From a virus: a stretch of 64,000 nt of DNA. How positions within the stretch are numbered: the stretch's first letter is position 1; each line of letters opens with the position of its first letter. The position numbers were made by a program, and so were the translations under genes. The DNA lies in IMG/VR virus record IMGVR_UViG_3300006853_000015. The stretch is one strand, 5' to 3'. Below the pieces are notes generated by a model, which was not told where the DNA came from, searched no databases, and saw only the letters and a list, made by a program, of their open reading frames with translations. Below are positions 6,144-61,454 of the stretch, piece by piece.

Positions 6144-6647
6144 TTACGCGGTTAAGTCTGGATAGAAGGAAACCGTGCGGAACAAGACGCCAGCTTCGGC
6201 GAAGATATCCCGCGCATAATGGGAATTCCTTCCCCATCGTGGGTCTGGCGCTTTCATATCCCAAGACACAAACTCACGGATACCGGCCTGCACGATTGAT
6301 GCGGCACATTGGTCGCACGGATAACCACCCCAAACCATGCATTGCAGATTGCGCGCGGCCATGTACATGGAACAGTTCAAGGTGGTGATGCCCATGCGCG
6401 CCGCCGTTGCAATCATGTTCTGCTCAGCGTGAACAATCATGCGGTACTTTATGGCACGGTTGTGAAGACGCCTTTCCGTATCATCCACGCCACGGGGCAG
6501 GCCGTTAAAGGAAAAGCCAAGCCCTTCCTTTCCAGGCCCTACCAGAACGCAGCCAACCTGCGTGGAAGGGTCTTTGCTCTCCCTTGCCACGCGGGTAGCC
6601 ATGTCAAGGAACAGATAGTCCCAATGGGACGGCGGATCATGCAGCAC
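6144..6647 (-). CDS. dCMP deaminase
   Basis: SKDPSTQVGCVLV, VHAEQN and PCDQC zinc motifs. Confidence 0.92.
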   Translation of the reverse strand: MLHDPPSHWDYLFLDMATRVARESKDPSTQVGCVLVGPGKEGLGFSFNGLPRGVDDTERRLHNRAIKYRMIVHAEQNMIATAARMGITTLNCSMYMAARNLQCMVWGGYPCDQCAASIVQAGIREFVSWDMKAPDPRWGRNSHYARDIFAEAGVLFRTVSFYPDLTA

Positions 6648-9895: not shown

Positions 9896-10441
9896 CTATG
9901 GCAGCATTCTCGCCAGCTCATGAAGAACGCGCTGACCGATGCCCTGGACGCCCCTATGGAAAGCGGCCAAGCTTGCACCTTTCACCAATTCATCGGCAAG
10001 TCCAGGCCCCATCTGCTTAACGATGGGGAAGCGGGGCCGCCCGGCCCGCTTGAACACGTGGCCGCCTAGATAGACGTTATCGCCCGGCGCACCAAAAGCG
10101 CTTGGATATCTGGCTTGCGGCGTCTTGGCCAGAACGCCCCACGACATCTGTTTGGGCGAATAGTATTTCAGGGACATGGGGCCACCGCGCCCCACAATCT
10201 TAGCTTCGATGGCCGAGCCAGCTATGCGCGCCGGAACGAATTTCGTTGCCTTGGCGATGAAGCCGCGCGGGAAGCCGGTTTGCACAGCAAGCGCCCGCTT
10301 CACCGCAGTGAATGTTTTGCGCCCTTCGTGATTTACGGCGCGCACCATAACCACCTTGCCCTTACCAGCGCCAAGCGCCATTAGGGCGGCTGAATAGGTA
10401 GCCATAACGTGGTCAAGGGGCTGGATAACGATCATTGCCAT
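9896..10441 (-). CDS. Lambda gpZ-like minor tail / tail-completion protein
   Basis: RAVNH.GRK..TAVKRAL..QTG...GHVFKRAGRPRFPI...GP pattern; basic protein; first gene after a strong promoter. Start uncertain (10441-10483). Confidence 0.7.
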   Translation of the reverse strand: MAMIVIQPLDHVMATYSAALMALGAGKGKVVMVRAVNHEGRKTFTAVKRALAVQTGFPRGFIAKATKFVPARIAGSAIEAKIVGRGGPMSLKYYSPKQMSWGVLAKTPQARYPSAFGAPGDNVYLGGHVFKRAGRPRFPIVKQMGPGLADELVKGASLAAFHRGVQGIGQRVLHELARMLP

Positions 10442-10641
10442 GATGATCAGGCCCCAAATAACAGGAGCCCCGCCGCTGGCCATTACACCAGGGCGGGGCA
10501 GGGAGGGAGAACAATTACAACCGGCGCGGAACGCAAGACATCAGTCCGGCTGCAAAGGCTTGTAAGCTGCGATTTCGGATAGGGCCTAGCTGGGGGGATA
10601 GTTTCGGCCCCTTGGCTACAATTTCGCATCTTACCCTTTTT

Positions 10642-10674
10642 TATATAGCAAAATGCAGAAAGCGCCGCAACCCC
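10642..10674 (-). promoter_or_regulatory. Sigma70-type promoter for the gpZ/ssb operon
   Basis: Minus strand GGGG-TTGCGG-N17-TATATA, just downstream of a terminator. Confidence 0.6.
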
Positions 10675-10725
10675 ATCGCAAGCCTGTGTTAACCATGACG
10701 TAGTGTTGTGACATAGGTTATGTCT

Positions 10726-10750
10726 AAAAAAAGCCCGGCTGAAGCCGGGC
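10726..10750 (-). terminator. Rho-independent terminator after gcrA
   Basis: Minus strand GCCCGGCT-TC-AGCCGGGC followed by T7. Confidence 0.8.
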
Positions 10751-10900
10751 AGTTTGAGAAACCAAACATGAGAAATCAAAGAACGGCAACCTGCGAAGAT
10801 TAGGTCACGTTCTGTTCTGCGTAGCGGTTACATGGCTATGCCCTCCAAAAGGTGCGGCCCATCAATCCCATAGCTGGCCGCCTGCCTTACAATCTTGTGC

Positions 10901-11434: not shown

Positions 11435-11910
11435 TACAGCTCTAGCGGAACCTCTCTTTCGTTCAATGCCGCCGCGATGGCATGAAGCGCACGCTTGCGA
11501 TAGCGCTCGTTTGTATCCTTGGAGACCTTCAGCTTTTCCCTGCACATCTTCTCAACGCTTTGCGCCCGTGCGCGGCATTGCAGATAGAGCAGAAGGTGCT
11601 CGCGCTGTATGATGCACCCCACATGCTCCATAGGCCATGATATCGCAACGCCCGCCTTATCGATGTGGTGCGGGAAAACAATTCCGTTGTGATCAAAGAT
11701 ACGGCCTGCAAGGATTTCCAGAAGCTCCACATTCATGGCCCCGCCTAGCCGGTCAACTATCACCGTTGCGCGGATAAGCCGGGTTAGCACGTCGTTGGCT
11801 GTCCACTTTTCCTTCGCAAGGAGCACGGTGCGGTCCTGTATGGCTTCGATCTTATCGCCAAGCCGGGGCCGCTGTTTCGGGTTGCTAAGGCGTTGCGCGT
11901 ACCGCTTCAT
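11434..11910 (-). CDS. Putative late transcription regulator (Q / sigma-region-4-like C-terminal HTH)
   Basis: Lies directly after the primase-helicase. C-terminus CREKLKVSKDTNERYRKRALHAIAAALN is HTH-like. The family is inferred. Confidence 0.5.
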   Translation of the reverse strand: MKRYAQRLSNPKQRPRLGDKIEAIQDRTVLLAKEKWTANDVLTRLIRATVIVDRLGGAMNVELLEILAGRIFDHNGIVFPHHIDKAGVAISWPMEHVGCIIQREHLLLYLQCRARAQSVEKMCREKLKVSKDTNERYRKRALHAIAAALNEREVPLEL

Positions 11911-13727
11911 TCGGCTTCCCCCTGGAAGCGGGGCCGCCGCTGGTAATCCTTGGGCTCCGGGGGAATGTTCGGTTGCCCGATCACGCACGAGGTTATCTCG
12001 CTTCCATGCGTGTTTATCCCAAGGTCAACTTCGTTCAGGACATAACGGTAACGCGCACCCACTTTGCCGTCCTTCTGTTTCTTCACCCACATTTCCCTAA
12101 TGTCGCGCCCGTGCTGGTCATACATAACCTGCGGCTCTTCGCGCGATTTCTTCTCAGGCTTGGTCATCAAGATTTCGCAGATAAAGGCGTTCTCGAGATT
12201 GCCCTCTAAGCTGGTGTGGCCGCGTATCCGCGAGCCTTCTGCGTTTAGATGATGGATAAGCAGCACGGCGGCTCCAGTGCCTTCCTGTAGCTTGCGGCAA
12301 CGGTCCAGGCATACCGAAACGTCGCGGCCGGAAATATCATCCGCCCCGGTTGTGGCCGTGGCGTAGGTGTCGATTACAATAAGCTCAAGTCTAATGCCTT
12401 GATTGGCCTGGAATTCATCGTCAAAGTTCTTACACTCTTCAATCAAGTCATTCAGGTCTTCTTCATCCCTGTAAAGATTGATGCGGGAAGGCAGCAGAAC
12501 GAAGGGCAGGTCTTCGCGAACACCAAACGCCTTACGGTACGCGCGCAACCGTTGCTTGATGCCTACGCCGCCCTCTCCGGCTTGGTAGACAATCCCGCCG
12601 CGCAAAGCCTTGTGGCCCATGAAGCCGGTTCCGCGTGCGATGGACATGCACATATGCAGGGCGATGAAGCTCTTTCCGGTTTGCGTAGCCCCGGCCAAGA
12701 CAGCGATTTCCTGCCGCGTTAAAATCTTGTCGATTAGCCATTCGTATTCTTGACCGCCCGGCTTCTCGATTTCGCCCCACCGCATGGCCTTAAAGCGGCT
12801 TTTGAAGCTCCGCTGTTTCATGGTGACGGATTGCTCCACGGCCAGCTCTAAAAGCTGGCCAGCGGTTCCGCCCGCCTCAATCCAATCTGTGGCGTCCCCC
12901 TTTTCGGGAAGCCCCGGTAAATCGAGAACGCGCACAGAGCGCGCGATGCCGGTTAGCTGGCGATCAACTAACCGCGCGTGTTTGTCTCCGGCCTGATCAT
13001 TGTCCGGAAGGATCATCACGTCCGCATCAACAAACCACGGGCACAGCTCATCCGGCCACTTGCCCGCGCCCATCGGGTTGCACGTGGCGTTGATGCCTAT
13101 CTGCCGCAGATTGTTTACATCCTTCTCGCCTTCCACGATGAAGACAAGGTTGCCGTCTTCAATCCCCTTGATCAGCTCTGGAAGCCGGTAAGGCACTTGC
13201 GTTACGCCTTCCAGGTTCATAATCCAACCGCCGCTCCCATCGGGGCGGCGCTGGCGAAAGGTTTTCTTTTTGATGCCGTCCACCATGCCTTCCAAACGTT
13301 GAGCCTGAAAAATCACGGTGCCCGTTTTGTCTGTGTAATCGTAAGTGGCAACCACCTTAAGGCTTGGGGCCGGGGCCGCCTTCTTCTTCGGCTTGCTATC
13401 TTCCCTTTCCACTTTGAACTCCCCAAGGCCAAGCTGTTCTGAAACAGCCTTGGCCGCTTCGCCCATGGCGCACCCGTTAAGGTAGGCGTATAGCGATATT
13501 ACGTCTTTGCCCTTCACCCCTTCGCACGCGAAGTCAGCCCAAACGCCCGTTCTAAGGTTGATTGAGAAGCTTCCAGGCGTGCGATCCCCGCGAACGACGT
13601 TACGGGCAACCCACTCCTTGCCGCCCTTCTTCTGGCCATCTGGAAGCCAGGAAGACACAAGCGCCTCGATGTGCGCTTGTGCCTGTGCGATTAGCTGCGA
13701 GAACGCATTTGCAGCTTCTCTGCTCAT
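11907..13727 (-). CDS. Primase-helicase (TOPRIM + RepA/AAA_25 helicase)
   Basis: N-terminal GSFSINL.TG.W.DF; TOPRIM VFIVEGEKD and LPDNDQAG; Walker A AGATQTGKS; Walker B LIVIDT; LLIHH...RGHTSL. Confidence 0.92.
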   Translation of the reverse strand: MSREAANAFSQLIAQAQAHIEALVSSWLPDGQKKGGKEWVARNVVRGDRTPGSFSINLRTGVWADFACEGVKGKDVISLYAYLNGCAMGEAAKAVSEQLGLGEFKVEREDSKPKKKAAPAPSLKVVATYDYTDKTGTVIFQAQRLEGMVDGIKKKTFRQRRPDGSGGWIMNLEGVTQVPYRLPELIKGIEDGNLVFIVEGEKDVNNLRQIGINATCNPMGAGKWPDELCPWFVDADVMILPDNDQAGDKHARLVDRQLTGIARSVRVLDLPGLPEKGDATDWIEAGGTAGQLLELAVEQSVTMKQRSFKSRFKAMRWGEIEKPGGQEYEWLIDKILTRQEIAVLAGATQTGKSFIALHMCMSIARGTGFMGHKALRGGIVYQAGEGGVGIKQRLRAYRKAFGVREDLPFVLLPSRINLYRDEEDLNDLIEECKNFDDEFQANQGIRLELIVIDTYATATTGADDISGRDVSVCLDRCRKLQEGTGAAVLLIHHLNAEGSRIRGHTSLEGNLENAFICEILMTKPEKKSREEPQVMYDQHGRDIREMWVKKQKDGKVGARYRYVLNEVDLGINTHGSEITSCVIGQPNIPPEPKDYQRRPRFQGEAE

Positions 13728-16540: not shown

Positions 16541-16795
16541 ATGGTGTGGAAAATGTCGAAATCGTGCCGTTCGTGCCGCTTTTACAGTGACCGCTTGGCC
16601 AAGGTGCAAGGCGGTTGCGTTGTTGCGTGCTGCCTATCTCGCCTTAGCCCTTCTCGGGGCCTGTTCCTTCTACCAGGGCGCGCCTGTGCCGCGTATGAAT
16701 TCGGAGAGCCGGTAGATGCCTATCAAGTCCAAATCGCAACCAACTTCATCACAGCCCTTGCAACAGGAGACGGCGGGGTTGAACCCGCCGTTTGA
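16541..16795 (+). CDS. Small Cys-rich hypothetical protein
   Basis: CRSCRFY...C...C pattern; overlaps the exonuclease ORF. Confidence 0.4.
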   Translation: MVWKMSKSCRSCRFYSDRLAKVQGGCVVACCLSRLSPSRGLFLLPGRACAAYEFGEPVDAYQVQIATNFITALATGDGGVEPAV

Positions 16796-17822
16796 GCCGG
16801 GTATCTACTTTGGCCTTCCGGAAGATGTCTATCATTCCGATAACTCGCTTGGCAGTAGCGACCTTAAGCTCCTGAACAACTCGCCGCCGCAATATTGGTT
16901 CAAGCGGATGAGCGGCCAGGACGATGACCCGGAAACGCGAAGCCGCGTGATAGGCCGCGCCGTGCACCGTATCGTCCTGGAAGGCATGGAAGCCTATCAG
17001 GCCGGGTTCCACGTTGAACCTGATGTAAGCTTGAAAACCGTTGAAGACCTGATGGGATGGATACGGCCCCGCGCGCCCAACTTCGTCAAGGGCAGCAAGC
17101 TCAAGGCGGAAATCATTGCACAGGTGCACAAGATCGCTAAGACCTTGGGCCATGATGTTCCGCCGATATATGACGAATTCAAAGCCCGCGCCGAAAGCGC
17201 GGGGGCTGTGATCCTGAAACGGGAAGAACACGAGCGCATCATATTCGCCAGCGCCCAAATCGCGGCTACGCCCGATCTAAGCAACGCCTTCAAGAATGGA
17301 TATCCAGAAGTATCCGTCTTCTGGGAAGATGATCACGGCAACCGCCGCAAGGCGCGCTTCGATTTCATGAAGCCCCGCGCCAGTGTGGACCTTAAGTCCA
17401 TCCGGCCGTTGGGTAACGAGCCGTTCTCCGTTGAATGCCGCAAGGCGTTCTGCAAGTGGGAGTATGATGTTCAGGCCGGTGCGTATACGGAAGCCAGACG
17501 GCAGCTTCCCGCGCTTCATGCGGCGGGAAGGGTGTTTGGCGATCACAACGCGGCATGGCTGGAAGATGTGTGCAAACATGACCCGGATAAAAGCGCCTTT
17601 GTCTTCGTGTTTTGGGCATCACAGGGCGCGCCGCTTTGTTGGGGTTGCACGTTAAGCCCGAAGAACCCAATACTGGACATTGCGCGCATTAAAATCTCAA
17701 ACGCATTGAACCAATTCCAGGTTTACAGCCAGCGCTTCGCTGGGGACGCCCAACCTTGGGCGAATGAAGTGCGCCTTGAAGAGCTTGATATGGATGATTT
17801 GCCGCCCTGGTTTGGGCGATAG
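16716..17822 (+). CDS. RecE/exonuclease VIII-like PD-(D/E)XK nuclease
   Basis: GIYFGLPEDVYH...LGSSDLK, IGRAVH..VLEG, EVSVFW...KARFD...SVDLKS, YDVQAGAY. Confidence 0.85.
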   Translation: MPIKSKSQPTSSQPLQQETAGLNPPFEPGIYFGLPEDVYHSDNSLGSSDLKLLNNSPPQYWFKRMSGQDDDPETRSRVIGRAVHRIVLEGMEAYQAGFHVEPDVSLKTVEDLMGWIRPRAPNFVKGSKLKAEIIAQVHKIAKTLGHDVPPIYDEFKARAESAGAVILKREEHERIIFASAQIAATPDLSNAFKNGYPEVSVFWEDDHGNRRKARFDFMKPRASVDLKSIRPLGNEPFSVECRKAFCKWEYDVQAGAYTEARRQLPALHAAGRVFGDHNAAWLEDVCKHDPDKSAFVFVFWASQGAPLCWGCTLSPKNPILDIARIKISNALNQFQVYSQRFAGDAQPWANEVRLEELDMDDLPPWFGR

Positions 17823-19175: not shown

Positions 19176-19422
19176 GAGTGCTTGGCGTACCGAAGCACGC
19201 AAGGCGCTAGCTGCACTTAACGGTAGGCGTCTAACCCAAGTTGCGATTACTTTGCACTGTAGGGCGCGGGGTATTGTGCCTGTGCCCCCGGATTGTTGGG
19301 GGAGCTTCACAGCACAGCTTATCAGAGAGCAGGTGTTGGAAATTGTGTCCCGCACGGCCCCAAGGGGCGGCCGAGCGGGCGCTTTCGTATTCAGGGTTTG
19401 CGTTAGAAAGGAAAACGTATGA
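19168..19422 (+). CDS. Hypothetical protein
   Basis: 84-aa ORF coupled on both sides. Confidence 0.5.
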   Translation: MSESAWRTEARKALAALNGRRLTQVAITLHCRARGIVPVPPDCWGSFTAQLIREQVLEIVSRTAPRGGRAGAFVFRVCVRKENV

Positions 19423-20651
19423 CTAACCCCAAGGATATTGTTGGGCAAAGCAAGGCATCCACCCATTGCATCCCGCCCGTTGCCCTTCTCGAAATGGGAG
19501 CGGCGCTGCACTTCGGGGCCTACCACGCCAAGCGGGCAGACGGTGGGGAAGGATACGGCCCGTTCAATTGGCGAGAGCAGCGGCTTCGCATGAACATCTA
19601 CACGGATGCTCTCATGCGCCATTACCTTGCCTTCATGGATGGACAGGACCGCGCCGATGACAGCAAGGCGCACCACCTTGGCCACATCATGGCGTGCTGT
19701 GCGATCATCATGGACGCCATGGAACTGGAAACCATGGACGATACGCGGCCCGATATCACGGGGCAGTATAACAAGGTGGCCGCGCGCATCCGTGATCAGA
19801 ACCTTGATCGTGCCGCAGCGATCATGGAAGCGATGGCGAATGATCCTGTGGACGAAGGCGATCTTTCGCAGGGCACCTATGGGGAATTGGCCGCGCGAGA
19901 ATTCCCAATTGATCAGGACACAAGCCTGCCAATTCACGAATATGCCGGGGCTTTCGGCATGAAGATGAACCCACCGCAACATACCCGCGAAACTGCCCTG
20001 GAAGATGGCCGCAGCGCCATTAACAAAGGGCCGTGGCCGTGGCCAACGCCAGACCACATAGAAGACTGCTTTAAACTTGGCCGGTTGCGGCATCCGCATT
20101 GCCCCGGTGCGGCGTTGATCGAAACAAGCCTGATGGTTTGGCGCGCTGGCGCGGCCAACGGCCAGCTTGCGGCGCACGGCCTACTTCCTGAAAATTCGGC
20201 CTTCCCAGATGGCGGATTATATGCAGCCGAGGCCGCTAAATACGGCTACCTTCTTACACAGCCGGTGCCATCGCTTGATAATGGAACGCGGTTGCTTACC
20301 CCATCTCCACTTTTGGAGAAGCATGTTCTTGAGCGCTGCTTTTACGAGAAGGTTAGAACCTCTGTTAAGGGACAACTCTTCGAAGAAGTTATAGAGAGAG
20401 CGGCAGATTTGGCTAAAGATGTTCTCAGAATATCGCCGAATATCCCAAGGGAAGAATGGCTTGCTCGGCTTGAAAGGAATGCGCAATACCCGGTCTACTT
20501 CTCAAGTGATGGCCGCTCCAAATATGAGAGCACCCCGGAAGAAATTCACGACCTTGCCATTCAAATGCTTCATACCCCGCGCGGATCATACGCGGGGCTA
20601 ACGCGCAAGCCTGCCGAGCACGATAGCGCGGCCTGGACAGGAAAAGATTAA
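19419..20651 (+). CDS. dATP/dGTP diphosphohydrolase-domain (DUF5664-like) protein with a long unknown C-terminal extension
   Basis: MTNPKD..G..K....IPPVAL.E...GA...YG.FNWR...Y.DA.MRH...GQD...S..HHLGH..AC in the first ~115 aa. Confidence 0.8.
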   Translation: MTNPKDIVGQSKASTHCIPPVALLEMGAALHFGAYHAKRADGGEGYGPFNWREQRLRMNIYTDALMRHYLAFMDGQDRADDSKAHHLGHIMACCAIIMDAMELETMDDTRPDITGQYNKVAARIRDQNLDRAAAIMEAMANDPVDEGDLSQGTYGELAAREFPIDQDTSLPIHEYAGAFGMKMNPPQHTRETALEDGRSAINKGPWPWPTPDHIEDCFKLGRLRHPHCPGAALIETSLMVWRAGAANGQLAAHGLLPENSAFPDGGLYAAEAAKYGYLLTQPVPSLDNGTRLLTPSPLLEKHVLERCFYEKVRTSVKGQLFEEVIERAADLAKDVLRISPNIPREEWLARLERNAQYPVYFSSDGRSKYESTPEEIHDLAIQMLHTPRGSYAGLTRKPAEHDSAAWTGKD

Positions 20652-55824: not shown

Positions 55825-57846
55825 CTAAAGCTTTCTGGCCGCCTGTGCCATGCGCTTGCGTAAGCCTTCGCCAACGCTTTTGCCGCTATGGCTGTCTTCT
55901 TCGGTAACGCCGCCGCTTCTTTCAACGCCTTCCGGGATCAGATGGCAATTCAGAAGCCACGCGGCAGCACGCGCAAGGGCTTCGGCGTCCAGATAATGGT
56001 TCTCGGATGAGCGCACAATCCACTCCGGCTTACCCGTATCGGGGTCTATGATGCGGTTTTCCGCCGCAACTTGACGGCAATAATCTTCCGTGGCGTTGCT
56101 GGGTAGCAGGAACGCGCCCGGCTTATCCATCGGAAGGCGGATTGCGCTATGCGTCCATTGCTTGAAGAAATCGCTGTCCACGTGAACAAGCTCAATCTTC
56201 CGCCTTAGGCCGCCGTCATCAATGCCATGCTCCACAATGCTAAGGGGCTTCATGCGCACGTGGTGGCCGCGTGTAGCGCGGCACAACCATGAATTCTTCC
56301 AACAGAAATCATAAACGGTATGTGCGTCGCCGCTTGATTTCTTGTTTGGCCGGAAGCCCGCGTCTATGAACGCCTTTGAGACGAGCATGCCCGCGCGCTC
56401 GGCCGTAAGAACCTTGTAAAGCTCTTCCCAAACGTCATTGTGATGCGTTGGACCCCAAATCTCATTGGCGTCCACAAGCCAGGATGTGCCGCGAGAACCC
56501 CAACCACGGATAACGTAGACAAGCCGCTTTTGCTGCACGTCCACGCCTGCCGTAAGGATCACCGCGCCCAAAGGCACGTTGCCCATGGGGTACGGAAGCT
56601 TGCGCCCGGCTACTTCCTTCCACGTGACAGCGTTTTCAACTTCCAGATGGGAGAAGCATTCGCCGAAAGCGGAATTGATGACCGTTTGGATTTTGTTTGC
56701 ATCGCCTGTGGCCATTTCACCAAGTAGGCGCGCAGCACGCTCCCCAAACGTTCTAAACGGACTACACAGCCCCGAAACCCAAAAGCTAATGGTGGTAGTG
56801 GCGGGATGGCTTCCCGCCACTGTACCGGCCTTATTTACGGTTTGGCCCGGTGCCACATAAACGCCGCGCTCGTTCATCTCCTGCTTATGGTGCTCTTCGA
56901 TCACCCCACCGCATCCGGGGCATTCCAGATACGCGGAATGCAGCACCTGCGCGGGGCTCTCGTGCTTCGGCCATTTCAGCAGGTCGGCGCGCGGCACAAA
57001 GAAGTCTCCGCAGTGCGGACACGGCCAGCACCAATGATGCCGCGTGCCCTCCTGCCAAAGCTTCCAGATGCCGCTTTTGATTTCATCGGGCTCCCGATAC
57101 TTCCAGAAGCGCAAGCCGCTGTTGGGGTCAAGCTCCGTTTCCACCAAGCCAAGGGAGGGCGTGGAAACCACGCCAACCGAGAAGTCATCGTATGTTTCGC
57201 CACGCGCTTCCACAAGGCCAAGGGGATCGCCCTGGCCGCGAATGTTGTGCAGCATTTCGTCATATTCGTCCACCACGGCCAAGCCAGCCGGATCAGACTT
57301 AAGGGCTGTGGAGCTGCCGCCATGCGCCAAGCGCACGCGCACGCCAGCAATGCGCTTAAGCGTCTTGCTTTGCATACGGTCGCCTAGCAACTTGGCTTGC
57401 AACGTGGCCGATTGCTCAAACAGCTCCACCAACCGGGGCTCAAACTGCGTTTTGACGAATTCCGCAGTAGGCCCCGCGTAAAGGATAGGCACGGGCCTTT
57501 GATCAAGCCGCGCACCCATAACGTCTAGCAGCGCTTCCGTCTTGCCGCTTTGGGCGGCCATGGCGAGAACGCAGCGCTTATATTCGCCGCTGTCCAGCGC
57601 GTGCTCGAAAGGGATGATGTACGGGGTTAGGCCGGGATCGCGAGCGCCCGGCCTGCCGCTGGTTTCTGGATAGACGCGGTTTTGATATGCCCAGATATCG
57701 GGCTTATTCCTCTCTACTGGCTCTAGTATCTTCGCGGATAGCTTCGCAAGCCTCGCCATATTTCGAAGCGAGCGCGGCCAGTTCGCGCCTGATGCCGTCA
57801 ACGGCACGTTCAATGCGGTTTCTGACATCCCTGTCCCTTGTTCCAA
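55825..57846 (-). CDS. Terminase large subunit (lambda gpA family)
   Basis: Walker A MAAQSGKTE, VVDEYDEM, STP, WPCPHCG..F, CPGCG..I.E, LTAGVDVQ, AFIDAG, ENHYLDA. Start may be 57828 or 57759. Confidence 0.96.
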   Translation of the reverse strand: MEQGTGMSETALNVPLTASGANWPRSLRNMARLAKLSAKILEPVERNKPDIWAYQNRVYPETSGRPGARDPGLTPYIIPFEHALDSGEYKRCVLAMAAQSGKTEALLDVMGARLDQRPVPILYAGPTAEFVKTQFEPRLVELFEQSATLQAKLLGDRMQSKTLKRIAGVRVRLAHGGSSTALKSDPAGLAVVDEYDEMLHNIRGQGDPLGLVEARGETYDDFSVGVVSTPSLGLVETELDPNSGLRFWKYREPDEIKSGIWKLWQEGTRHHWCWPCPHCGDFFVPRADLLKWPKHESPAQVLHSAYLECPGCGGVIEEHHKQEMNERGVYVAPGQTVNKAGTVAGSHPATTTISFWVSGLCSPFRTFGERAARLLGEMATGDANKIQTVINSAFGECFSHLEVENAVTWKEVAGRKLPYPMGNVPLGAVILTAGVDVQQKRLVYVIRGWGSRGTSWLVDANEIWGPTHHNDVWEELYKVLTAERAGMLVSKAFIDAGFRPNKKSSGDAHTVYDFCWKNSWLCRATRGHHVRMKPLSIVEHGIDDGGLRRKIELVHVDSDFFKQWTHSAIRLPMDKPGAFLLPSNATEDYCRQVAAENRIIDPDTGKPEWIVRSSENHYLDAEALARAAAWLLNCHLIPEGVERSGGVTEEDSHSGKSVGEGLRKRMAQAARKL

Positions 57847-58354
57847 TCATGGCGGGAAGACCGGCCAGACGCGATACAACTTCGCCCATCATCGTGGCAA
57901 CGAAAGCCTCGGCTTCTTCCACGGGCACAAGCTGGCCGCCTTTCGCGGCCATGCGCTGCTCAATCTCTTTCGCGCGAATAGCTTGGAGCTTCTTTTGGGT
58001 TTCCGTGCCAAGGTTCTGACGCCTTTCGCCCTTCGCCCAAGCAATGATGCCGCGAATGCTTTCTTGAAGACTGTACAGCTTGTTTTTGTCCGGCGCGATG
58101 AAGCCGCCCTTTGCCAAGTCGTCAAGCTGCCTTGACGGCATGCCGCATAGCTCACCAAGCTCGAATTGCCGGTATCGGCCATCTTGCAGGAACTTGATAT
58201 ATCCCTGCATCAGCTCAAGAAGGTGATACCGGCCCCGCTTCATAGCGTAATAGCCAAGGTTGCCGATGCGCTTTACATCACGCTCGGGGATATCAAGGAG
58301 CTTCGCGGCCTCAAACGCCGAAAGATAACCCCTTTCCGCCTGTTCTTCGGCCAT
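57704..58354 (-). CDS. Terminase small subunit (Nu1-like)
   Basis: Directly upstream of terminase large; two winged-helix-like repeats, a coiled coil, and GQLVPVEE...L.GLPA. Confidence 0.8.
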   Translation of the reverse strand: MAEEQAERGYLSAFEAAKLLDIPERDVKRIGNLGYYAMKRGRYHLLELMQGYIKFLQDGRYRQFELGELCGMPSRQLDDLAKGGFIAPDKNKLYSLQESIRGIIAWAKGERRQNLGTETQKKLQAIRAKEIEQRMAAKGGQLVPVEEAEAFVATMMGEVVSRLAGLPAMIGTRDRDVRNRIERAVDGIRRELAALASKYGEACEAIREDTRASREE

Positions 58355-58362
58355 TCATCCTC

Positions 58363-59121
58363 CTAGCGCAAGCCCGCAACCTTGTGCGTCTGAACCGAGA
58401 CAAGCCAATCGTTCACCCGCGCCGCTTCCAGGCAAAGCTCCGTTGCCTTCTTCGACATGGAAAGCGGCTGCAAATAAACGGGCACGTGGTACGCCGTGGC
58501 GCTTTTGCGCACTTCAAGGCGTCTCGCCAGAAGCTTTTGCAGCGTTGTGATATCCGCTGGTTTTCCAACCGGCATCTTGATTTCGTCGGCGCGCAATAGC
58601 GCGTCATCAAGCACCACAAGGCCGCCCGGCATATCCACCTTGGGCGAGAGAGTTACGAAGGTTCCGGGGTCCGCGCTGATTTCGTGCGTGCCGCTGGTTT
58701 CGATCTGGGTTGTAAAGCCCAAGCTTTCGAGATCGTTTGTAACCTTGAAAAGGTCGTAAACGCACGGCTCGCCGCCCGTGAACACCACGTGGTTGTTGCC
58801 GTATTCCTTGGCTAGGCGCACCAGGAACGCGGCTTCCACGATGGCGAATTCAGGGGAGCCCGGCGCTTTGTTCGCAAGCGCCACATAGTGCACCAGATTG
58901 GCCGCGTTCACCTTCCAGGTGTATTTCGTATCGCACCACGGGCACCCTACGGCACAGCCTTGAAGCCGGAAGAAGGTGGAAGGCTTCCCCGTATGGGAGC
59001 CTTCCCCTTGCATCGTTGAGAAGTGTTCGTTAAGGAGCAAGCCTTCCGCAAAGCGCGTTTTGCTGCTCTCGCTTGGCCCGCCGCTTTGGCTTGTGCCCTT
59101 GGGCATATGCTGCTCTGTCAC
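58363..59121 (-). CDS. queE: 7-carboxy-7-deazaguanine synthase (radical SAM)
   Basis: NEHFSTMQGEG..TG.P..F.RL.GCAVGCPWCDT (CxxxCxxC), VVFTGGEP, IETSG, SPK, YLQP, SVQTHK. GGAGG RBS plus GTG at 59121. Confidence 0.95.
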   Translation of the reverse strand: MTEQHMPKGTSQSGGPSESSKTRFAEGLLLNEHFSTMQGEGSHTGKPSTFFRLQGCAVGCPWCDTKYTWKVNAANLVHYVALANKAPGSPEFAIVEAAFLVRLAKEYGNNHVVFTGGEPCVYDLFKVTNDLESLGFTTQIETSGTHEISADPGTFVTLSPKVDMPGGLVVLDDALLRADEIKMPVGKPADITTLQKLLARRLEVRKSATAYHVPVYLQPLSMSKKATELCLEAARVNDWLVSVQTHKVAGLR

Positions 59122-59491
59122 GTTCCGCCTCCACCCTGTTTTCCCACGGAAAGACAAGCCATGTCTCCGGGTCGATGATATACGCCACGGTCCCGCCGTG
59201 AACATGCTCCGATTTATCAAACCACGCGGCGAAGTGAACAACCGGAAAGGTGTCCATCGTTTCGCCGCTTTCGATAACATCGTCTATAACCAGCGTGTTA
59301 AGCTGGTCAACTTCGGCCCTATCCGTGATTAGCGGGATGCCAAGGCCATGGCTTACGGCAACCGCCATCGGCAGGCCGCCGCGCGGGATGCCGTACACGC
59401 TTTTAACGGAGCCCGATTTCACATAGTCCGCGTAAAAACGGATAAGGGCCTCAGCCCCCCTAGTGAAGTGAGCCCACGTAACCGCCAGCAT
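59030..59491 (-). CDS. Purine phosphoribosyltransferase (Gpt-like, type I PRTase)
   Basis: VYGIPRGGL, PRPP-binding LVIDDVIESGETM, WLVFPWE. Start MLAVTW at 59491. Confidence 0.85.
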   Translation of the reverse strand: MLAVTWAHFTRGAEALIRFYADYVKSGSVKSVYGIPRGGLPMAVAVSHGLGIPLITDRAEVDQLNTLVIDDVIESGETMDTFPVVHFAAWFDKSEHVHGGTVAYIIDPETWLVFPWENRVEAERDRAAYAQGHKPKRRAKREQQNALCGRLAP

Positions 59492-59924
59492 GGAGCCGGT
59501 ATGAAGCGCGGCATTTGCCGGTTTCTTCAATGATCGTTTCAACGAGTTGCACCCCCGTGCCAAATAACTGCATGGGGCCAACGCAGCAGACCAAATGCCT
59601 AGCCATGTTCTCCGCTGTAGGGTTGAAAGGAACGGCAACCACTGTTCTGTCGATTTCCATGAGAGCCCGCAAACGCGGGTCTTGTTCCCATAACAGAAAC
59701 TTGTGGTCCCAATTCTCCTCAAGCCATGCGCACAGCAACGTCTTGATTTGAGAAAAGTCCAGCACACGCCCAATGTGGTCAAGCGTGTGCGCCGCGCACA
59801 CAAGGTGGAATTTGTAGTTGTGGCCGTGAAGGTGCGCGCACTTCCCCTCATGGCCCCAAACGCTATGACCGGCGCAAATCTCGTGCGTGCGCGTGGCCGT
59901 GATAACGCCGTTTGTGATGCTCAC
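59460..59924 (-). CDS. queD: 6-carboxy-5,6,7,8-tetrahydropterin synthase
   Basis: AGH.V.GHEGKCAHLHGHNY, LDFSQIK, WDHKFL, NPTAENMA, ET..C.A.Y. GTG start overlaps the folE stop. Confidence 0.93.
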   Translation of the reverse strand: MSITNGVITATRTHEICAGHSVWGHEGKCAHLHGHNYKFHLVCAAHTLDHIGRVLDFSQIKTLLCAWLEENWDHKFLLWEQDPRLRALMEIDRTVVAVPFNPTAENMARHLVCCVGPMQLFGTGVQLVETIIEETGKCRASYRLHAGGYVGSLH

Positions 59925-60625
59925 TTTGCAAGCTCCATCAGCCCCAACATACGCTCCATTTGGTGGGGTAGGTTCATTGTTCCGCGCGCGGCCTGGGTAA
60001 TCATCACGGTGCCCGCATCTCGCACGCCACGCCAGCACGCACAGAAATGCCGCGCCTGAACGATCACGCCAACGCCACGCGGCGCAAAGGCCGCGTGCAG
60101 GGCTTCCACAAGCTGTTGCGTGGCTTCCTCCTGTATCTGCGGCCTGGACATGATGTGTTCTGTGATGCGCCCAAACTTCGATAGACCGAGCAGGGCGTTC
60201 CCTGAGAGCACGCCTACCCATGCCTTCCCAATGATGGGAACCAAATGGTGGCTACAAGCCGAATTAAAGCCCCAAGGGCCTGCTACAAACATATCGGAGC
60301 CCTGCACCACGTTGGGGAACGAAGTGGCTTCAGGCGGCCTTAAATAGCGCCCCTTGAACACTTCGCGCACGTACATCTTCGCCACGCGCGCGGCAGTGTT
60401 CTTCGCGTTGGGATCATTCTCCCTGTCGATCAGAAGGGCGTCAAGTACGCCCTCCATCGCAAGCTTAACCCCTTCCTCGATGCACTCCATTTCGAAGTCA
60501 TCGATATAATCGGCCAGCGATGCATTGGCGTGCATCGAAACGCCCTTCGCCTTTAGCTGGGATCGAACTTTTTCGATCACCAGCCTAACGTCATACGGCT
60601 TTTCCATGGTATCGGCCCGCGTCAT
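59921..60625 (-). CDS. folE: GTP cyclohydrolase I
   Basis: TAARVAKMY..EVF.G, SACSHHL.P..G, GLSKFGR...RPQIQE, ARHFC..WRGV. Confidence 0.95.
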   Translation of the reverse strand: MTRADTMEKPYDVRLVIEKVRSQLKAKGVSMHANASLADYIDDFEMECIEEGVKLAMEGVLDALLIDRENDPNAKNTAARVAKMYVREVFKGRYLRPPEATSFPNVVQGSDMFVAGPWGFNSACSHHLVPIIGKAWVGVLSGNALLGLSKFGRITEHIMSRPQIQEEATQQLVEALHAAFAPRGVGVIVQARHFCACWRGVRDAGTVMITQAARGTMNLPHQMERMLGLMELAK

Positions 60626-61454
60626 AGTGCTGCATCAGCAAGCGCGTATAGATGCTTGTCGTGATCGCAAAGAACAGTTTCACACCAAGAACGCGGCGTA
60701 ACTCACAAGAAAATTCCACCCACGAGGCCGTTGTGATGTTCTGCCAAGTGGAACACACACCTTTGCCAGCGTCTGGGGCAAAGATTGAATAGGGATCATA
60801 TCCCAGCTTGCGGATGCGCTCGGCCACGCGCCGGTTAAGCTTGGCGCGGGTAAGCTGGCGCGGGTGAAGCAACTCCATCACGCCGTGCCCCATATAGACG
60901 GATACCGTACCGAAGCGCCCGCCCTGTTTCCAAGAGCTACTGTCCACGCTGTACGGCTTCAGAAGCTTGATTAGGGGCCAACGTGTCATGCCCAGCAAAT
61001 GCGCCTTGCGCCCTGCCGACCATTCAATCATTTTGGCCGCCCATTGCGCGCCCGCCAGATTGGCGGACGCAAGGCCGCCGAAAGCCACGTAATCAGAAGT
61101 CTGATAGTAGGCGTTGACGGTTTCTTCCGTATCGCCCCGCGTGGCGATGGGGATAGGCTTGAAGCCCCGCGAGAGCATGATTTCGTAATTGCGTAGGGTC
61201 TGCTCCGGTTGCCCGATCACGTCTAGCGTGTAATAGCAATCCGGCATAAGGCCGTCCATGCGCAACGTATCCAGGAAGCCGCAATAGCCGTCAAGCGTTA
61301 CCTCCTTCCCCATCTTGAAGGCGGTAAAGGCCCCGCTGTCCAACATGAATTCGATATCCTCCCGCCTGCTCTTCACCAGCTTGCGCAGGTCTGAACCAAG
61401 GTAGGAGTAGGATATCAGGATGGGAATTCTATTCGATTTCGAGGCTGTCTCCAA
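60591..61454 (-). CDS. dpdA: DpdA-like DNA guanine transglycosylase (TGT fold)
   Basis: FMLDSGAFT, LDVIG, YVAFGG, HLLG.T, YSVDSSSW motifs; adjacent to folE/queD/queE. Subfamily not determined. Confidence 0.8.
   Translation of the reverse strand: METASKSNRIPILISYSYLGSDLRKLVKSRREDIEFMLDSGAFTAFKMGKEVTLDGYCGFLDTLRMDGLMPDCYYTLDVIGQPEQTLRNYEIMLSRGFKPIPIATRGDTEETVNAYYQTSDYVAFGGLASANLAGAQWAAKMIEWSAGRKAHLLGMTRWPLIKLLKPYSVDSSSWKQGGRFGTVSVYMGHGVMELLHPRQLTRAKLNRRVAERIRKLGYDPYSIFAPDAGKGVCSTWQNITTASWVEFSCELRRVLGVKLFFAITTSIYTRLLMQHYDAGRYHGKAV

Follow-up and report, generated by a model that had tools for sequence, protein, structure and literature searches.

Phage 7-deazaguanine DNA modification is described as the work of FolE, QueD, QueE, QueC and the transglycosylase DpdA, together with tailoring enzymes. 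To our knowledge, nobody has asked what becomes of the guanine expelled by DpdA, or how the GTP demand of the pathway, which reaches one GTP per G in phages replacing every guanine, is supplied. Here we analyse a phosphoribosyltransferase (PRTase), P0001, encoded inside a deazaguanine operon of the IMG/VR virus record IMGVR_UViG_3300006853_000015, and propose that it may return guanine to the GTP pool. The window analysed comprises 64,000 nucleotides, that is, nearly all of the 65.9-kb linear record (CheckV completeness, 88%). Neither Hutinet et al. (2019; PMC6884629) nor the 2023 NAR paper (PMC10516641) mentions phosphoribosyl or salvage, and among papers with full text available outside subscription none was found that takes up a PRTase, or the salvage of guanine, in connection with the deazaguanine clusters of phages; the matches retrieved on NAMPT and on Ter-system PRTases proved unrelated to the phage gene.

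Among described enzymes, Gpt of E. coli and Yersinia pestis (1NUL, 1A95-98, 5XTK; NF006613) has the size class (about 150 amino acids) and fold of P0001, and shares with it the N-terminal helix, the RGG pyrophosphate loop, the DD..D(T/S)G.T loop that binds phosphoribosyl pyrophosphate (PRPP), the Lys equivalent to K115 and the C-terminal W..PW(D/E) hood. Nevertheless, identity is about 25%, P0001 lacks the 18 residues of the Gpt mobile loop, and its gene is part of a phage operon for DNA modification, whereas Gpt is a housekeeping gene. The best profile match, PH0095 of Pyrococcus horikoshii (1VDM), has the (W)(I/L)VFPWE motif in common with P0001, but both this protein and the HGXPRT GpT-2 of Sulfolobus solfataricus (4Z1O) keep a flexible-loop insertion of 20-22 residues that the phage family does not have. 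A different kind of likeness, based on published description and not on sequence, exists with TubE and ToyH, the PRPP-dependent 7-deazapurine PRTases of tubercidin and toyocamycin (PMC6112128). The tubercidin cluster, like the window, combines a purine-type PRTase with FolE, QueD and QueE homologues in the absence of QueC; however, TubE (194 amino acids) works with UbiD, GMP-reductase and Nudix tailoring enzymes and no DNA transglycosylase, whereas the window has DpdA.

A purine-type phosphoribosyltransferase gene in a viral deazaguanine operon

Five overlapping genes on the minus strand, in the order dpdA-folE-queD-PRT-queE, run directly into the packaging and head genes of the virus, with TerS, TerL and portal genes coming after queE. 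The operon and its immediate downstream neighbour are composed as follows:

60591..61454, minus strand: DpdA-like DNA guanine transglycosylase of the TGT superfamily (phrog_887 at 2e-32; no Pfam match)
59921..60625, minus strand: FolE, GTP cyclohydrolase I (PF01227 at 6e-38)
59460..59924, minus strand: QueD, 6-carboxytetrahydropterin synthase (PF01242 at 4e-24; CxxxHGH motif present)
59030..59491, minus strand: P0001, loop-less Gpt-like purine phosphoribosyltransferase of 153 amino acids (PHROG, Pfam, NCBIfam, PDB profile and AF2/Foldseek evidence)
58363..59106, minus strand: QueE, 7-carboxy-7-deazaguanine synthase of the E. coli type (TIGR04322, 243 bits, above cut-off)
57704..58354, minus strand: terminase small subunit, immediately downstream of the operon (PHROG profile context)

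The PRTase open reading frame (ORF) translates without stops. Its overlap with queD amounts to 32 nt. With queE it shares 77 nt when the ATG at 59106 is taken as the queE start, and 11 nt when the TTG at 59040 is; the last 25 or so residues of P0001, which overlap queE, form a low-confidence tail. The queD start is a GTG that overlaps the folE stop as GTGA. DpdA, FolE, QueD and QueE, the four proteins required of a phage DpdA 7-deazaguanine DNA-modification system, are thus all encoded in one overlapping operon. QueC (PF06508) is absent from the 65.9-kb, 88% complete record, which contains a single PTPS-family gene. A reading of this gene as DpdL was rejected, since QueD retains the CxxxHGH motif and the record has no second member of the family. 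The same DpdA-FolE-QueD-PRTase-QueE operon occurs in a 43-kb relative that is 100% complete with terminal repeats (L041/G025), and QueC was likewise not found there. With neither QueC nor DpdL, such phages must borrow QueC from the host or insert 7-carboxy-7-deazaguanine (CDG).

A previous sequence-only reading of the window had described the 59030-59491 product as a type I PRTase overlapping both queD and queE, on the basis of three motifs, and had taken it for a purine enzyme embedded in the que/dpdA operon. The ORF translation and coordinates confirm the former description, the motifs YGIPRGG, DDVIESG and WLVFPWE occupying residues 33-39, 70-76 and 111-117 of P0001, and family matches and neighbouring genes agree with the latter, at a level that chance could not plausibly produce. 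Indeed, P0001 is matched by PHROG 8995 ("phosphoribosyl transferase") at 3.6e-13 and by Pfam PF00156 at 3.6e-5, in this case below threshold (23.6 bits against a gathering cut-off of 26.3), which the homologue from an immuto phage (see below) clears with 35.1 bits. When a family profile built from 22 homologues (A1) was run against PDB sequences, the top match was the P. horikoshii purine PRTase 1VDM (4.8e-24), with the S. solfataricus HGXPRT 4Z1O (1e-15) and the Yersinia and E. coli XGPRT (Gpt) structures (2e-14 to 1e-12) also recovered. XGPRT and 1VDM were also the top Foldseek matches (probability 1.0, TM about 0.6) of an AlphaFold2 model of P0001 with a mean pLDDT of 89.4. The best NCBIfam model is that of xanthine PRTase, NF006613, but its score of 34.7 bits is far under the equivalog cut-off of 138, which indicates a related subfamily and not a Gpt ortholog. 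Judged from sequence and predicted structure, P0001 is a member of the Gpt/XGPRT-like group of 6-oxopurine PRTases.

Conserved active-site residues and a missing loop

Residue conservation was counted across 85 viral members of the family, and residues were assigned to functions by alignment with Gpt and from HGPRT and XGPRT structures. The R-G-G of the pyrophosphate loop is nearly invariant (R37 in 83 members, G38 in 84 and G39 in all 85). The PRPP-binding loop, an acidic dyad followed by (S/T)-G-x-T, is present in P0001 as D70-D71-V-I-E74-S75-G76-E-T78 and is kept across the family, with D70 found in 84 members, D71 in 82, an acid at position 74 in 84, S or T at 75 in 84, G76 in 85 and T78 in 76. 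Lys or Arg at position 93 is retained in 74 members, and W111, P115, W116 and E117 in 84 members each. In the HMMER alignment, E74, K93 and W111 of P0001 fall on D92, K115 and W134 of Gpt, which we take to be the N7 contact, the O6 contact and the base-stacking residue, respectively. The phage family therefore combines the fold match with the features expected of the Gpt-like group, namely an acid at the N7 position, a Lys or Arg at the O6 position and a stacking Trp.

By contrast, the long flexible catalytic loop of type I PRTases is missing. HMMER alignments with Gpt, 1VDM and 4Z1O show a consistent gap of 18-22 residues in the phage family between core strands 2 and 3, a segment that corresponds to the mobile catalytic loop (loop II). 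The distance from the RGG to the D(S/T)G motif is mostly 36-41 residues in the 85 viral members, compared with 58-65 in looped alphaproteobacterial Gpt. Thus, the identification as a type I purine PRTase made in the sequence-only reading stands, but the absence of the loop had been overlooked. The family is a natural subfamily of type I PRTases devoid of the mobile catalytic loop and a probable accessory of viral 7-deazaguanine DNA modification, and as such it is of interest to enzymology.

Linkage to FolE in metagenomic and isolate viruses

Further loci were picked from IMG/VR by the PRTase only, using a sequence pattern and tblastn. At least 272 relatives were confirmed, the best 80 of which were analysed, and the 10-kb flanks of these 80 loci were examined by tblastn with the proteins of the window and of Pseudomonas phage PaMx25. 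Since few queries were used, neighbour counts are lower bounds, and they refer to contigs that are fragments and phylogenetically clustered. FolE was found within 10 kb in 67 of the 80 loci, on the same strand as the PRTase in every case, and it mostly adjoins the PRTase gene or is separated from it only by QueD, as in the window. QueE was detected in 59 loci, QueD in 44 and QueC in 18. After the addition of a phrog_887 search (50 whole records) and of an immuto-type DpdA query, DpdA of any type was found in 50, a lower bound in view of the many contig fragments among the loci without it. One or more deazaguanine genes accompany the PRTase in 71 loci. As background, FolE is detectable with the window's protein in 404 of 50,697 isolate phage records (0.8%), a frequency used because the intended control with the window's dCMP deaminase gave 4 loci, too few. 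The nominal binomial p for the FolE linkage is about 1e-126 but only indicative, since the loci are not phylogenetically independent. Across other phages the gene is thus strongly enriched beside que/dpdA clusters, an outcome whose absence was to count against the sequence-only reading.

A single ORF spans the PRTase and FolE domains in 11 of the 80 loci. Together with the fused protein of Vibrio phage VpKK5 described below, these fusions group beside the window's protein on a FastTree phylogeny, where 2 changes are needed. Repeated independent fusion was considered and not retained, since on this poorly resolved tree (127 columns) all 12 fusions fall together in a single group with weak support. 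The closest partner of the PRTase is FolE, the GTP-consuming entry enzyme of the pathway, and not QueE, QueC or DpdA, which handle the base. The gene occurs with every downstream chemistry, be it QueC, Gat-QueC, QueF/DpdN, the DpdL type or none, and QueC is present in close relatives of the window with the same gene order (L004, L008-L012). In 29 of the 80 loci, an immuto-like group of large phages among L004-L083, a MazG-like PRA-PH hydrolase (PF01503; 55-89% identity across the 29 loci) adjoins the PRTase and FolE; its counterpart in immuto 2-6A (L089) lies at 10341-10865.

A tblastn search with P0001 of the 50,697 isolate phage records identified 40 that carry the PRTase gene, and four of these were opened. 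By record name they are PaMx25/NP1-type Pseudomonas phages and related Stenotrophomonas, Xanthomonas and Variovorax phages, Vibrio phage VpKK5, Sphingomonas phage MMDA13, Cellulophaga phiST-like phages and Flavobacterium immuto phages. We take all of these name groups (Nipunavirus-like, VpKK5, phiST, immuto and MMDA13) to be known deazaguanine modifiers. PaMx25 gp38, VpKK5 gp32, immuto 2-6A gp211 and phiST CGPG_00045 belong to the same loop-less family, their aligned segments being 27-41% identical to P0001. The gene order in PaMx25 is QueE, Gat-QueC, QueD, gp38 (PRTase), FolE, a hypothetical gene, DpdA, a processivity factor and PolA. VpKK5 gp32 is a fused PRTase-FolE protein of 300 amino acids. 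In immuto 2-6A, the PRTase gene (gp211) stands directly before FolE (gp210). DpdA, DpdN, a kinase, QueF and PolA are encoded in the vicinity, and a DUF4494 protein and a P-loop kinase lie beside the MazG-like hydrolase. phiST carries the gene at a position outside its deazaguanine cluster. These clusters differ from that of the window in the presence of QueC, Gat-QueC, QueF/DpdN or DpdL, in the nearby phage PolA and in gene order. Essentially all G is replaced in phiST and immuto 2-6A (PMC10516641, Table 1).

Annotation of the gene is uneven. In 30 of the 40 records, the feature covering the PRTase match is labelled GTP cyclohydrolase, and several GenBank records give this name to the whole fusion, hiding the PRTase domain. 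The RefSeq record of PaMx25 (L001, 5880-6810) annotates gp38 and FolE as two overlapping coding sequences, and a near-identical metagenomic relative (L083, 9875-10798) has PRTase and FolE in one open frame.

Loop-less copies are also found in picocyanobacteria. Cellular genomes were sampled with a degenerate DNA pattern, and the first 80 loci constitute an unsystematic sample; among the matches listed (L091-L169), about 20 Prochlorococcus and Synechococcus loci besides L143 carry a loop-less PRTase. These copies show 34-38% identity and are nested among the viral sequences on a weakly supported tree, and no que genes were found near them. Neighbouring genes were scanned at a single locus, L143 (4492-5387). 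There, the PRTase gene overlaps by 4 nt a gene of the nucleoside 2-deoxyribosyltransferase family, with a P-loop kinase and an HNH endonuclease nearby, an arrangement that may represent a phage-derived salvage cassette. The ordinary salvage setting of this copy argues that the loop-less form is an enzyme.

Proposed guanine salvage and competing explanations

Two roles had been put forward in the sequence-only reading, namely salvage of the guanine released by DpdA and ribosylation of a deazaguanine base. Of these, salvage is the better supported, given the partnering with FolE, the retention of the N7-contact acid, the variety of downstream chemistries and the picocyanobacterial copies; that guanine is the substrate is what we infer from these features. 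According to this proposal, P0001 would be a working but minimal 6-oxopurine enzyme of the guanine type that converts guanine and PRPP into GMP, which host guanylate kinase and nucleoside diphosphate kinase would raise to GTP. FolE, QueD and QueE would then turn GTP into CDG, and preQ0 would probably be completed by host QueC, since the phage has none. DpdA would exchange guanine in the phage DNA for the deazaguanine base, freeing one guanine per modified site. By returning this expelled guanine, as well as guanine from the breakdown of host nucleic acids, to the GTP pool drained by the pathway, the PRTase would close the loop, and it would also clear a possible competitor at DpdA. Since each exchange by DpdA yields guanine as a co-product, one guanine-specific enzyme would fit all cluster types, and recycling would pay most in phages such as phiST and immuto 2-6A, where each genomic G costs one expelled guanine and one GTP. 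We regard salvage of guanine for FolE, with DpdA as its most plausible source, as somewhat more probable than all other explanations taken together. If this is correct, the pathway would gain its missing recycling step in a conserved PRTase that some phages fuse to FolE, and hypermodification would be close to guanine-neutral.

Several observations weigh against this proposal. The gene appears dispensable, because only about 10% of the FolE-positive isolate phages carry it, and 9 of the 80 metagenomic loci have no deazaguanine gene nearby; several of these have the PRTase at a contig edge, and 3 of the 9 have full flanks. Moreover, GMP is two kinase steps away from the substrate of FolE, so the fusion cannot channel substrate directly and would instead reflect co-regulation. 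Because the 18-22 residue loop that closes the active site is absent in the subfamily, catalysis may be slow or require a partner. The 7-deazaguanines are also 2-amino-6-oxo bases, and most pocket residues therefore do not distinguish them from guanine. Finally, a purine-type PRTase specific for CDG does exist, namely TubE (Liu et al. 2018, PMC6112128).

This enzyme provides the precedent for the ribosylation role, in which the PRTase would act on a 7-deazaguanine base, here most plausibly CDG, to make a modified nucleotide for pre-replicative incorporation or another use at the nucleotide level. The CDG-specific TubE belongs to a FolE/QueD/QueE cluster without QueC (PMC6112128), and a comparable lack is seen in the window record (no QueC or DpdL) and in its 100%-complete relative (no QueC). 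A window protein with an N-terminal dATP/dGTP diphosphohydrolase domain (PF18909) would suit such a route, as would the MazG-like PRA-PH hydrolase and P-loop kinase set beside PRTase, FolE and PolA in immuto-like clusters. However, the acid that would contact N7 is retained in 84 of 85 members, while a 7-deaza base has no N7, and the closest partner of the PRTase is on the input side of the pathway. The gene accompanies clusters with very different end products, many close relatives have QueC, and DpdA is present in the window as well as in 50 of the 80 loci. No UbiD, GMP-reductase or Nudix tailoring genes were seen among the roughly 35 window ORFs scanned, and insertion is post-replicative in all known cases according to the published conclusion (PMC10516641). 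A search of the record for DNA polymerases of families A, B and C found none, in agreement with the earlier remark that no phage polymerase is visible; this absence speaks against a pre-replicative route in this virus, but as an argument for salvage it is weak, because the PRTase gene adjoins phage PolA in PaMx25, VpKK5 and immuto 2-6A. We consider ribosylation of deazaguanine improbable, and about equally improbable is the related proposal that the loop-less PRTase is the viral counterpart of TubE, serving a nucleotide-level route alongside or instead of DpdA in QueC-less and in fully substituted immuto-like phages. Should the enzyme act on deazaguanine bases, the question of a pre-replicative route would be reopened.

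Less distant from the salvage proposal is a general booster of purine salvage, in which guanine, hypoxanthine or xanthine from host nucleic-acid breakdown would enlarge the GTP pool with no special tie to DpdA; the two differ only in the source of guanine. The linkage to FolE (67/80) is stronger than that to DpdA (50/80), the picocyanobacterial copies occur with general salvage genes and no DpdA, and the nearest solved relatives are broad HGXPRTs, all of which would fit a booster. Yet the DpdA count is a lower bound, many of the negatives being contig fragments, and one would not expect a booster to follow a single pathway this closely, since bacterial hosts generally have their own Gpt or Hpt. 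On balance it is an unlikely explanation, if the strongest of the alternatives. The least probable, which we hold to be very unlikely, is that the PRTase is a non-catalytic module that binds PRPP, GMP, guanine or (p)ppGpp and regulates FolE, to which it would be joined as a domain in some phages while acting as a distinct subunit in this virus. The family-wide deletion of the flexible loop, the existence of in-frame FolE fusions and the ability of Gpt-like folds to bind ppGpp (PDB 5vog is among the Foldseek matches) would be consistent with a sensor, but the acidic dyad for PRPP and Mg, the pyrophosphate loop and the stacking Trp are near-invariant beyond the usual needs of one, and the cyanobacterial copies stand alone without FolE beside salvage genes.

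The PF18909 protein mentioned above is encoded elsewhere in the window:

19419-20651, plus strand: 410-amino-acid protein with an N-terminal dATP/dGTP diphosphohydrolase domain (PF18909 at 9e-20; phrog_801, phrog_2252)

Its domain content makes it a possible modifier of the dGTP pool in a phage that rewrites G. Other replication and nucleotide genes of the record encode a primase/helicase (11907-13727, minus strand), a RecE-like exonuclease (16716-17822, plus strand) and a dCMP deaminase (6144-6647, minus strand). The CcrM/HinfI site GANTC has 0 occurrences on both strands of the window (1-64000), against 193 +/- 14 expected from dinucleotide-preserving shuffles.

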